Below, one piece after another: positions 26,907 to 41,199 of a DNA stretch of 64,000 nucleotides. Under the pieces are notes generated by a model. The model was given only the letters and a program-made list of their open reading frames with translations. It had not been told where the DNA came from and did not search any database. The position numbers were made by a program, and so were the translations under genes. Location: positions 44,020,001-44,084,000 of the forward strand of contig CM097887.1 of the NCBI GenBank assembly GCA_044892525.1, in the 5' to 3' direction. This DNA is from Schmidtea polychroa (taxonomy: Eukaryota). How positions within the stretch are numbered: position 1 is the first letter of the stretch; the number at the start of each line of letters is the position of its first letter.

Positions 26907-27041
26907 TTAAATTTCATCCAATTTCACGTAGTAAGTACTCATGACTCAACATACATGTTCCGCATATGCCACTTGAGAGTCAGAAAATTCCGTCTGTAGC
27001 CAACAAGTGATAGGTTTCCCAACTAGTTACGTTGTGAACAT
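26907..27041 (-). pseudogene. Innexin fragment, part 2 (end of TM1 and first extracellular loop)
   Basis: MFTT*LVGKPITCWLQTEFSDSQVAYAEHVC*VMSTYYVKLDEI* matches the innexin KQYVG.PI.CW....F......Y....CWV..TYY consensus; stops sit at the Q and W positions. Confidence 0.88.
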
Positions 27042-27206
27042 AAAAAAAAAAAATAAAATAAAATAAAATTTTATTTTAATCAATTGACGGCACTTGGCCA
27101 AGAAGGGGAGAACTTCTCACCCTTAGAGTTCTGTAGCTTTTAATTCAATGACCGATGGATACCAGAGTTATAAACTCAGGTATCAGAACGTGGGTTTCCA
27201 AATGGG

Positions 27207-27674
27207 TTGGAGTAATTGGAGTATTTGGAGTAATAGGAGCAGTTGGAGTAGTTGGAGCAGTTGGAGTAATTGGAGCAGTTGGAGTAATTGTAGCAATTGG
27301 AGTAATTGTAACAGTTGGAGCAATTGTAGCAGTTGGAGTAATTGGAGCAGTTGGAGTTGGAAATCGTCATTTAGTTGGGAGAAAGATGGTGTCAGATTTA
27401 TGGATTCTGCAATAGTGGTAACATTATCGTGGTAGAGTTTTGGGAAGTCATCATCGTAGGAGTTTTCAGTAGTTTAAAGATTTGGTGCAAGTGTTCAGAA
27501 TTTAGAGGTTTGGATTGGTCTTGATAGGTGGAGGTGATCGATATTGCAAGATTATTGATGTTGGTGTATATTTCACTGTTTGGATTGATTGTAGTAGTTG
27601 GAGTGAATGGAGCAGTTGGAGCAAATAGAGCGGTTGGAGTAAATGGAGCAGTTGGAGTAAATGGAGCAGTTGGG
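27207..27674. repeat. Two arrays of a 9-bp unit TTGGAG(C/T)A(A/G) in the 3' UTR of element A
   Basis: Arrays at about 27207-27360 and 27597-27674. Confidence 0.9.
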
Positions 27675-28566
27675 GAGGTCCGCCATTTGAGAGGAATACC
27701 GGATCGTACATGATAATATCTGAAATAAATAAATGTCGGGGCAGGAAGGCTCCCTTGCAAGGTTTATATATCGCTTATTATATTACTTATTATAGTATAT
27801 ATTGGAAGGAGTTGGTGAAGGTTGGGATAAGTATGGATAGTAGTATTAGTTCGTAATGTTAGTGATTATAGTAGTGATAGTATAATAAAGATCATTATAG
27901 TATTGATAAGAACAACTAAAAAGACCACCAAATAGGCAGAACCCCTACAAGGATTCCTACATTAACCCATTCGGTGATTGGCACACGCAGTACATTATTA
28001 ATNNNNNNNNNNNNNNNNNNNNNNNNNNNNNNNNNNNNNNNNNNNNNNNNNNNNNNNNNNNNNNNNNNNNNNNNNNNNNNNNNNNNNNNNNNNNNNNNNN
28101 NNNNNNNNNNNNNNNNNNNNNNNNNNNNNNNNNNNNNNNNNNNNNNNNNNNNNNNNNNNNNNNNNNNNNNNNNNNNNNNNNNNNNNNNNNNNNNNNNNNN
28201 NNNNNNNNNNNNNNNNNNNNNNNNATTAGCAATAACAATAATAATATTATATTAAATACATTAAGAATAATAATATTACAACATTAGGAATTATGGTCAT
28301 TAAGTTAATTTAGAGAGAGTTGGTTGAATTAGAGAGTTTAGATATTTATATAGTTGATTAATAATAGTTAATAATATAGATAATAGCCATAAAACACAAA
28401 TAGAATAGGATAATGCTCTGAGTACATATTATATACGAAATATCTGGATTTCAAGATTGGTTTAACAAGAGACAAAGAAAATTGTAAAAGGGTGATATAT
28501 AGTAACCATAGAATACAAATAAATAAAAGATGCTTTGGCTACAAAAAGATAGATATATAAGTATAA

Positions 28567-39500: not shown

Positions 39501-39824
39501 GACAATTTTCTGTAGGTCTAAGATGGTTTCGAGGATACTATTGGCAAGTGAAAGGTGGATAGAAGGACTTTCATCGGTTGTAGGGTCAATAAGTACTGCC
39601 AGCTTTCGGCGTTTGTCTAGGAAGAAGAAGAACCAATTGTCTTTAGCATGACACATTGGCATGATGATCTCGTTCCAATCAGAGAAGTCTTTGAAAGGAA
39701 AGGTTTCAAAGAAGGTCTTGTAGTTGTGTTGTATAAGAGCGTTACCTATATAGGGGTCGACGAAGATGGTGGTAGGTCTGATGGCAAAGGAAAAGATGAA
39801 GGCATTGATAGAGTGTTGTGACCA
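36558..39824 (-). CDS. Element B: Ulp1-like domain, RT, CCHC, RLE
   Basis: KGVKQGCPLSMTLF, LAYADD, CRQCNSHPETQAHIFNHC, KPDL...ILDIKVPY. Open for 54 codons upstream of the annotated Met, up to the TGA. Confidence 0.93.
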   Translation of the reverse strand, partial: WSQHSINAFIFSFAIRPTTIFVDPYIGNALIQHNYKTFFETFPFKDFSDWNEIIMPMCHAKDNWFFFFLDKRRKLAVLIDPTTDESPSIHLSLANSILETILDLQKIVSPITIHLQYPEYPRCSTPNESAFFICHMIECLMKNDRITSPNIQNMINRIKIVIKKILNNRMASDDVRKYRPFISSLIINLNNDTTDCESVLCEINKINENINPKKYINKIPADITHKARKNANELLFVKRNRYKFNPKEEISKILNNETCFQKPTMKNLLKLFAGGITTCQTFSINLQCSYPETYSSTPFDLDDIKYILSQLANTAPGLDLITLANWKKISPDHELILSICNNIQRNSICPPSWKTFRTKLILKAGKNEISHEASSWRPISIMNTIYRIFSSLLNNRLLGWIKEGNLISNNQKAIGAPDGCAEHNFILQLIKDASNRNKSDLHIIWLDITDAFGSLPHDLIWYTLSKMGLHPNSIQLIKSMYDQVNTIFDCEGETSPSVPILKGVKQGCPLSMTLFCLSIDFIIKNILISHPFILGEMNIGILAYADDIVLISDSYPSINSALLETIRLASLANLKFKPSKSGYFHLNHNSSYHPIKLYNEIIPKVDDSNFYRYLGVDFSLKKRHNIDETLECALTDTEKILKSHLHPSQKINAFKIFIHSRLIFPFRNCEILHNILESHKNNIIKDRNPQKGFDNKIRKLIKIALGDRLLQINNNFLYASIKMGGMGLTSAIDEYIIQGIVHLSRALNSTDTSFRNLILSELALARGQSNLEAALYWINGNTSKSFQHRSIFLKFKKSADLLRRKYGIHAKILLLDNSYQLEIRYKDRINYFQSDNVNTISSEIHSIISLIHTEKWALLTYQGHIAKSICNSTTAGYLIKTDILTDAQFFFLIRARNNLLELNFTPHRLKSKKSIQCRQCNSHPETQAHIFNHCPAKINARRNKHSRVLDAVSEFLLNLNFYLDIEITPLGIPTLLKPDLIIRSMRNNNNHILDIKVPYEQRENFKRVTNDNYAKYANLAIQIEKAHKVKTTISALVIGTLGSWDSNNDQILRKIGLSKSEIKGLSQKACTAAVVSSYHILREHTLKD

Positions 39825-41033
39825 TCATGCAGCCTCCCTATCAATATTATTAGTAAATAGGATATTGTCAGGTATGTCCCTATTTATGATTTCATTATTT
39901 AGAGGTGATAGGATTGCCTCTTGCGTATCCAGAATATCATTAAAAAGGTTATTTTTAGTATTAATATTTACGTTATTACTGTAGTCATTATTCACGGGGC
40001 TATTCGAGGTCTCCTTATTGGGGTGATGATCCTCAATATGGTTTTTGGAGTCCTGATATTCTATCCACTCTCCACAGAAGCAATTAATTTTTAGATTGAT
40101 GTCGAATTTTAAGTTTTTATGATGTTTTATCATATGTGTATTTATTGTATCTAAGGGTGTGTCAATGTCGAAGGATTGGAAGCACTTGTTGCAGTTTTTG
40201 TTTAGATTGTGGCATAAAATACGGTTTGCGGAAGTAATTTTCAGGGTAATAGTCTTAAGGAAGTCCTTGTTTACACTACAGTGGTGCTCAAATTGGTCGA
40301 TGTGGTTATATAGGTTTCTAAGGGTGATGGTGTTCAAGATAGATCGGCTTCCTTCCCCTTTGGGTCTACATTGGTGGCAGTCGATCAAAGAGTCGTAGGT
40401 TATAGCGATGTTGTGAATTTCTTGGGCGTGTGACCTAATCCTATCAATATCAGTGGCAGAAATTTGTCCACAAAAAGAAGTATGGTGGCATCCACGGCAC
40501 TGTAATTTGCCCCGTAGATCAAAGTAGTATAATATTTCATCATTTATGTCTTTGGACATTGTATCTTTATTTATTATAGTTTTTCTCGTCTTTATGAGGT
40601 CTAAGGTGGGGGGTTTAAGAGTGTACGTTTTACCTCTAACCTCTAGGCTTTTTTGGAATTTTATGTCTTTTCTGTGGTGGATGGGAGTGGATGTGGTTGC
40701 GTATTTTGGTGTCTCTTTAGCAGAGGGTATAGTGTCCTTCAGGTTTATAAGGTTTGGTGATTTACGTTCAGTGTTTTCGACAGGGATAAGCCTTTTAGGA
40801 ATAGGGTATGATCTATCAAGGTCAATGTTTTCGGAGGAATGAAAGTTGTAGGTTTTCTTTTCTTGCCTAACAGGGGTTATGGTTGCAGAGTCATCTAGCG
40901 GTGATGGTCTAACTGAGGGATATATTTTGGGTTCCTCGATTGAGTCGGTAGGTAGGGTAAGGTTATAAGAGTTGGATTTCTCAGGCAGAGGAGGTGAGGT
41001 AATAAGTATTTGAATAGATTGACTTGCATTTAA
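39825..41033 (-). CDS. Element B N-terminal ORF: S/P-rich linker plus zinc fingers
   Basis: Frame is open from about 41033 through MSKDIND...CRGCHH...HAQEIH...CHQC...CFCG...HIEDHH to the TGA; probable homopolymer frameshift near 41035. Confidence 0.8.
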   Translation of the reverse strand, partial: LNASQSIQILITSPPLPEKSNSYNLTLPTDSIEEPKIYPSVRPSPLDDSATITPVRQEKKTYNFHSSENIDLDRSYPIPKRLIPVENTERKSPNLINLKDTIPSAKETPKYATTSTPIHHRKDIKFQKSLEVRGKTYTLKPPTLDLIKTRKTIINKDTMSKDINDEILYYFDLRGKLQCRGCHHTSFCGQISATDIDRIRSHAQEIHNIAITYDSLIDCHQCRPKGEGSRSILNTITLRNLYNHIDQFEHHCSVNKDFLKTITLKITSANRILCHNLNKNCNKCFQSFDIDTPLDTINTHMIKHHKNLKFDINLKINCFCGEWIEYQDSKNHIEDHHPNKETSNSPVNNDYSNNVNINTKNNLFNDILDTQEAILSPLNNEIINRDIPDNILFTNNIDREAA

Positions 41034-41078
41034 AAATTTTTAAGAGAAAAAGCATGGTTAAATAAGTGATATTTAAAA

Positions 41079-41199
41079 AAATTCCTATAAGAGTAGTTGT
41101 ATAAACATGATTAAGTCGATCGATACAGTCATCATCGTAACGGCATACTTTATTGGAAATTAGTGATTTATCAAGAATATACTTTCCTAATTCTTCCAT
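41079..41199 (-). pseudogene. Innexin fragment, part 1 (N-terminus and start of TM1)
   Basis: MEELGKYILDKSLISNKVCRYDDDCIDRLNHVYTTTLIGIF contains the innexin DDD..DRLN..YTT..L motif; continues at 27041. Confidence 0.88.

Follow-up and report, generated by a model that had tools for sequence, protein, structure and literature searches.

A split innexin fragment between the long terminal repeats of a retroelement in Schmidtea polychroa, most likely a dead passenger

Flatworms control patterning and regeneration through gap junctions. Here, we describe a piece of an innexin gene that lies inside a long terminal repeat (LTR) retroelement of Schmidtea polychroa, in a stretch of 64,000 nucleotides (GenBank assembly GCA_044892525.1, contig CM097887.1, positions 44,020,001 to 44,084,000 of the forward strand). 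This whole stretch is the window referred to below, and all coordinates are counted from its first letter. The innexin piece consists of an N-part and a C-part, which are separated by two tandem long interspersed nuclear elements (LINEs). Both parts sit between the LTRs of one insertion and are in sense orientation to its polyprotein. From the 5′ to the 3′ end of the carrier element, the features are as follows, with TM denoting transmembrane helices and ORF an open reading frame:

54935-55923, minus strand: 5′ LTR of 989 bp with the target-site duplication GTAC ahead of it, found by self-comparison
41081-41199, minus strand: innexin N-part, from the start codon to the first half of TM1
34819-41081, minus strand: LINE A, 5′-truncated, with an ORF1 remnant, a 1,088-codon ORF2 (reverse transcriptase and zinc finger) and a 33-nt poly(T) tail
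27042-34818, minus strand: LINE B, apparently full length, with a 982-codon ORF1, a 1,088-codon ORF2 and a T-rich tail
26913-27041, minus strand: innexin C-part, comprising the end of TM1 and the first extracellular loop with both cysteines; in-frame stops start at 27029 and 26948
25532-26520, minus strand: 3′ LTR of 989 bp with GTAC after it, found by self-comparison

The innexin identity of the C-part is clear from Pfam (PF00876, E = 7.6e-8, 32.4 bits with a cut-off of 25) and from a PDB sequence search, where it matches the solved Innexin-6 structure (E = 7.3e-6). Searched by itself, the N-part matches nothing in Pfam or PDB; it was recovered by a profile of 48 other innexin sequences in a six-frame scan of the window (independent E-value 2.9e-6) and, in a tblastn search, by the 141-aa protein P0004 (E = 7e-20). 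This protein came from a homologue search of 1.84 billion representatives that gave 54 matches, from which P0003, P0005, P0007, P0015 and P0025 were removed as repeat-driven non-innexins; 49 sequences were used for profiles, and 31 of those 49 entered a tree. A word-based search for homologues of the C-part returned nothing, to which we attach no weight, since even P0004, with many 5-mers in common with the query, was missed. Residues 9-45 of P0004 match the N-part and residues 50-92 the C-part, and because of this collinearity the two parts are consecutive pieces of one gene, now split. Fragment and P0004 agree in 69 of 80 aligned codons; relative to P0004, about three codons are missing where the two parts join and five near the N-terminus.

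At the split, the innexin-derived sequence ends at about 41081, since the adjoining 41081-41032 is 96% identical to LINE B. At the other end, homology stops near 26910, the profile alignment ending at C-part residue 44; a continuation past 26910 had seemed possible by eye and was dropped on account of where that alignment ends. The six-frame profile scan found no further innexin pieces in the window, the next best match having an E-value of 0.06. The fragment amounts to about 22% of an innexin gene, covering TM1 and loop 1 only, out of four TM helices and two cysteine-bearing loops, and it contains two stops.

The boundaries of the carrier element are equally firm. Its LTRs differ by 3 mismatches in 989 bp, have TG...CA ends and are flanked on the outside by GTAC, a motif with a frequency of 0.0017 per base in the left flank. 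A first-pass annotation of this DNA had already given sequences and coordinates for the two innexin parts; these were borne out by Pfam, Innexin-6, P0004 and our own profile, with the parts trimmed to 41199-41081 and 27041-26913. That the parts join as one split gene inside the LTRs, in sense with gag-pol, likewise holds, given the P0004 collinearity and the LTR pair with its GTAC duplication. The 14-kb nested insertion that it described does split the innexin, but turned out to be two tandem LINEs rather than one element.

As also proposed at first, the fragment is truncated and pseudogenised: stops occupy 2 of its 86 codons versus 2 of 3,314 in the polyprotein, a 39-fold higher density (Fisher p = 0.004). 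At an LTR divergence of 0.3%, about 0.4 substitutions would be expected in the fragment since integration, and at least 11 differences from P0004 are seen. All of the 11 codons (out of 80) that differ from P0004 are reachable by a single base change. Of the 23 conserved columns 4 are affected, and of the 57 variable ones 7; the consensus residue is present at 19 of the conserved columns in P0004 and at 16 in the window copy. This comparison of sequences looks as expected for neutral decay from a P0004-like source, with no sparing of conserved columns, and the same column counts lend no support to the earlier suggestion that the family carries a functional or dominant-negative version. The fragment was probably already dead in the parent element, and thus older than the present insertion, which predicts lesions common to sister copies. 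A functional viral innexin is recognized by an intact ORF under purifying selection; the window copy shows neither and makes no channel.

Immediately upstream of the innexin start lies a block of host-like sequence that contains a second candidate gene on the opposite strand:

41200-44020, no strand: AT-rich host-like block, with a GC content of 0.24-0.28 versus 0.29 in the flanks and 0.37 in the polyprotein; assembly gap at 42757-42895
41322-41482, plus strand: probable exon A of a HEAT/ARM-repeat host gene, open from 41340, with ATGs at 41352 and 41370
41483-41604, plus strand: retained intron of 122 nt, GT-AG, phase 2 on both sides
41605-41857, plus strand: probable exon B of the same gene, with AG before and GT after it, antisense to the element

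An unbiased script that looked for two open exons and a GT-AG intron within 41200-42756 recovers the intron at 41483-41604, flanked by 47 and 92 open codons. Among 300 block shuffles, 7 attained this 47 + 92-codon total; on the minus strand, the script found no such exon pair. In the atlas search, the antisense ORF at 41558-41878 scores 0.95-0.97 against eukaryotic HEAT/ARM clusters, for example GCN1, TANGO6, MMS19 and TBCD. We consider the antisense exons and their intron, as predicted here, supported but not proven. The innexin start and exon A face each other at a distance of about 120 bp.

Over the 2.8 kb upstream of the innexin, GC content forms a mosaic with plus-strand GT and AG sites at the transitions, and six-frame Pfam scans of this spacer returned nothing significant. 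A perfect 19-nt direct repeat (41974-41992 and 42280-42298) brackets 290 bp of higher GC content in which splice-donor motifs occur on the plus strand; this segment may be an insertion or further decayed exons. Traces of an old tandem duplication of about 650 bp are visible at 43190-43990; a candidate poly(A) junction near 43960 was weakened by the finding that the same A-run recurs in this duplication. Nor did a nested DNA transposon emerge around the block, there being no suitable terminal inverted repeat among the 25 longest of 360 pairs.

P0004, which scores far above all other innexin matches, has 3 member sequences and a single 1,005-bp contig, from jgi and ena sources. It is one open frame over the whole stretch matched by the fragment and ends just after TM2. 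In the 31-row tree, it groups with seven other rows (support 91/97) on a long branch (1.1 versus a median of 0.44). Within this group, P0013 and P0031 show no difference up to a point 32 residues from the YQW motif, beyond which they part; P0010 and P0033 depart from the family pattern at that point, and P0004 stops two codons past it. These alignments give moderate evidence that the end of P0004 is a host first exon read into an intron, about 47 codons beyond the stretch matched by the fragment, with the caveat that the valine at the supposed exon end is also found in five proteins that continue normally, and that the branch is long. No full-length close relative of P0004 was found among the 1.84 billion representatives, and prokaryotic genome contigs, scanned with P0004 and with pol, gave 49 and 35 pattern matches respectively, none of which was confirmed as a relative. 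The fragment lacks introns, but so does the corresponding part of P0004, a continuous open frame, and the intronless state therefore says little about mRNA capture. The first-pass argument from an intronless fragment to RNA-mediated capture of an innexin is thus not supported, and the neighbouring antisense GT-AG intron has been kept.

The remaining features of the carrier element are these:

54910-54927, minus strand: primer-binding site, starting with TGG directly after the 5′ LTR
44804-54748, minus strand: polyprotein, a single frame of 3,314 codons with in-frame stops at 50066-50068 and 48725-48727
44391-44639, minus strand: charged ORF after pol, 83 codons, no significant family
26521-26912, minus strand: 3′ non-coding end of the element, with an 86-bp duplication and a polypurine tract at 26533-26524

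We take the primer-binding site to be of the tRNA-Trp type. Innexin C-part, polypurine tract and 3′ LTR follow one another without an assembly gap. According to Pfam, and to a PDB search for the Bcl-2-like domain, the polyprotein contains, in this order, gag, three CCHC knuckles, a cargo region with a weakly matched candidate Bcl-2-like domain, a Monjiviricetes-type fusion glycoprotein, protease, reverse transcriptase (RT), RNase H, integrase and a tail. The fusion glycoprotein (PF24664, E = 3e-72 and 3e-12) lies between gag and protease in the same frame. Without the nested LINEs, the element measures about 16.4 kb, and there are three N gaps within it. Based on this domain architecture, we assign it as a putative envelope-bearing gypsy element and label it Burro-like, not Burro.

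The cargo region (51722-53500, minus strand), located between gag and env, appears by eye to alternate between helical and ubiquitin-like segments before the candidate Bcl-2-like domain. Bcl-2 is its best PDB sequence match, with an E-value of 0.016 for a query that was narrowed after the first search and of 0.46 for a wider one. A single-sequence model of the Bcl-2-like region reached a predicted local distance difference test score (pLDDT) of 62, with no significant hit in fold searches and no usable atlas match. Ubiquitin/SUMO-like and dUTPase-like domains were suggested by eye only; Pfam has no such match, and the model of the cargo region has a pLDDT of 45. After the integrase, about 380 codons continue in frame (44807-46000, minus strand), with one strong hydrophobic helix near the end and no Pfam or PHROGs family; this tail may represent a membrane protein in addition to the envelope. 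At 37-60% identity, P0057, P0058 and P0059 (jgi, ena and metaclust sources) are related to the env, and in P0059 the env piece is fused behind other Pfam domains. The window is about 71% AT, next to a value of >70% given for Schmidtea (PMC11410931). An alternative genetic code is ruled out by 1,000-codon ORFs that are open under the standard code, and the 64-kb window contains no tRNA or Rfam matches.

Both LINEs lie on the element's strand, together spanning 41081-27042, and show RVT_1 and zf-RVT domains in Pfam as well as a restriction-like endonuclease motif that we read by eye. Their ORF2s are 62% identical, their ORF1s only 33%. The 50 nt with which LINE A begins (41081-41032) match 33721-33672 inside the ORF1 of LINE B at 96% identity, which suggests a third event at this 5′ junction, either a template jump or an assembly collapse. 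Ahead of the RT, a weak Ulp1-like match (Peptidase_C48, E = 0.028) is present in LINE A and absent from LINE B. The weak Ulp1-like match points to possible membership in the NeSL/R5-LIN group. As both tails sit at T-runs, the LINEs probably have T-rich targets, and the T-rich codons of TM1 would then explain the insertion site in the innexin; the order of the two insertions is likewise deduced. We also observed an in-frame TGA between ORF1 and ORF2 at the equivalent aligned place in both LINEs (39825-39827 and 31834-31836, minus strand), in a context that is conserved although the LINEs are only about 65% identical. Programmed read-through or reinitiation is a possible explanation.

How did the innexin get there? 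In the reading that we favour, an ancestral Burro-like element transduced a block of host sequence, still unspliced, in which the innexin start travelled as a passenger; judging from one element copy, we give this a probability of roughly 0.6. The ancestor of the present envelope-bearing gypsy element would have taken up 1.7-3 kb of such host sequence in the non-coding part at its 3′ end. Two genes that face each other would have contributed their 5′ regions to it: in antisense a HEAT/ARM-repeat gene with an intron, and in sense an innexin, with its first ~90 codons. The cargo is best read as one such block because the antisense exons with their retained intron adjoin the innexin start. The likely route would be transduction during reverse transcription, starting from a minus-strand host RNA that either was co-packaged or arose by read-through. 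The antisense intron would stay unspliced on such an RNA, so that retroviral-type transduction remains the likeliest route. A template switch back to the 3′ end of the element would have occurred in the middle of innexin exon 1, after which the block may have been copied along as a neutral, decaying passenger. The present copy would have integrated recently, and LINEs of the restriction-like endonuclease type would later have entered the T-rich TM1 codons and each other's T tail. That capture preceded the present insertion and went by RNA is what we infer from the above.

Several observations weigh against this scenario. All evidence comes from a single element copy, and a 139-N gap lies between pol and the captured block. 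The atlas recognition value of the antisense ORF is 2261, below the 2300 mark, and the ORF has no significant Pfam, PDB or PHROGs match, for which reasons the antisense gene is left unnamed. Two stops among 11 differences are not unusual under drift (P = 0.20), and P0004 possibly belongs to another species, in which case some of the differences may have a source other than decay within the element. Finally, the captures described in PMC5131818 replaced ORFs of the element, whereas the element in the window keeps a full-length polyprotein.

Of the competing accounts, we regard as rather unlikely a DNA-level insertion specific to this copy, in which a break in the 3′ region was patched after integration with a decayed duplicate of a host locus and the family as a whole lacks the innexin. 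Genomic DNA would suit the retained intron and the host-like base composition, and the old ~650-bp duplication lies in the same region. Such a patch would however require a pre-existing pseudogene as donor, since 0.3% LTR divergence leaves no time for decay, and both the patch and two or three LINE insertions would have to fit into a short time. Capture in separate RNA events, the account nearest to the first-pass annotation, would have joined the 5′ end of a spliced innexin mRNA to an unrelated antisense pre-mRNA by successive template switches. Multi-gene chimeras of this kind are documented (PMC5131818), and the ~120 bp between innexin ATG and exon A are tight for a natural gene pair. Yet intron loss is not demonstrable in the innexin part and a single contiguous block takes fewer events, which makes separate captures quite improbable in our view. 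Least credible is a misassembly that scaffolded a host locus between the LTRs. While an assembly error would fit the three N gaps, and also the 50 nt of LINE B with which LINE A starts if these are collapsed repeats, the target duplication matches, and the sequence is gap-free from C-part to 3′ LTR and from N-part to antisense exons. Moreover, misassembly would not make stops and an in-frame deletion where a close relative is open.

The family might alternatively carry, or have carried, a selected half-innexin consisting of N-terminus, TM1, loop 1 and TM2, of which P0004 would be an open copy and the window a decayed one. Expressed as a 3′ accessory gene from a subgenomic RNA, it would act as a dominant-negative subunit that disturbs gap-junction coupling in infected or stem cells. 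The open 141-codon frame of P0004 with its end just after TM2 and its long branch would agree with this, as would its 1,005-bp contig from jgi and ena sources, where multicopy DNA presumably assembles more easily. An AG is found 33 nt ahead of the innexin ATG, and the carrier lineage is known for host-manipulating cargo (PMC6431247; PMC13465017). We nonetheless hold this explanation to be improbable: P0004 ends at an apparent exon junction of related innexins, where P0013 and P0031 diverge, as an exon read into its intron would; conserved columns are not spared in the window copy; the antisense exons beside the innexin suggest a passenger block of genomic origin; and the representatives searched hold no full-length close relative.

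The surroundings of the insertion also contain older repeats and probable host sequence. Adjoining the insertion site, 24331-24579 and 25110-25223 are older relatives of the LTR, 73-89% identical and in both orientations. Another gypsy pol, broken and recognized by a match to integrase, occupies 61882-63583 (minus strand), and a decayed hAT transposase lies at 58107-59935 (plus strand). An uninterrupted 331-codon ORF at 21415-22410 (minus strand) has a RanBP1 domain; a WD40 match at 17444-17908 and an exonuclease match at 1518-2060 (both plus strand) are probably host exons. Between 7013 and 11951, several segments of 64-223 bp are duplicated at ~98.5% identity.

Returning to transduction of a host block, the feature is most likely a new instance of the known capture of gene fragments by LTR elements, a dead passenger. 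Animal LTR elements are reported to make partial, 3′-truncated captures (median 26% of a transcript) and multi-gene chimeras, with secondary copying (Tan et al. 2016, PMC5131818). As in those cases, the LTRs in the window enclose an incomplete host sequence that has lost more at its 3′ end, possibly comes from two genes and can be copied with the element; the present case differs in that the cargo follows a full-length polyprotein instead of replacing ORFs and retains an antisense intron. In the open-licence literature, available mostly as titles and beginnings of abstracts, no publication on an innexin within an LTR element came to light. On the reading favoured here, the locus would offer a clear, well-bounded case of transduction of unspliced host DNA by an animal gypsy element, and a smaller relative with Burro architecture, useful for the study of transposon evolution although the mechanism is not new. 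It is also conceivable that, although dead, the passenger gives rise to small RNAs directed against the innexin and HEAT/ARM genes of the host.

As for the carrier, planarian Burro/GYPSM1 elements have an envelope in frame between gag and pol, plus BCL2-like and ubiquitin-like extras (Arkhipova and Yushenova 2019, PMC6431247). The window element resembles them in its single polyprotein, gag, three CCHC knuckles, extra domains, mononegavirus-type fusion gene and, as a weak candidate, a Bcl-2-like domain. It is, however, smaller (~16.4 kb versus >30 kb; 3,314 versus 4,873 codons), has in Pfam none of the BIR, MATH and ankyrin domains of Burro1, and bears an extra membrane-anchored tail after the integrase. 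Innexin is not mentioned in that review. The anti-apoptotic domain captured by Burro1 has been described second-hand as functional (PMC13465017), which keeps the half-innexin explanation alive. With NeSL-clade and R5-LIN restriction-endonuclease LINEs (Kojima and Jurka 2015, PMC4640811), the nested LINEs have in common the RT, C-terminal zinc finger, endonuclease motif and, as a weak candidate in LINE A, a Ulp1-like domain before the RT; those families target rRNA, tRNA, U2 and spliced-leader genes, whereas the LINEs in the window sit in tandem at T-runs.

Innexin sequence in a virus-like genome has precedents. The first-pass annotation rightly pointed to viral innexins from ichnoviruses, whose vinnexins are functional (PMC8402728), and they are also known from endogenous nimaviruses; in the endogenous majaniviruses, innexins are vertically inherited as a clade (PMC10871703, PMC3124438). 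Those innexins are gene families of large DNA viruses, whereas the retroelement described here carries ~22% of a gene, interrupted by stops. Should its family hold an open half-innexin after all, the finding would matter more, as a retroelement counterpart of the ichnovirus vinnexins.

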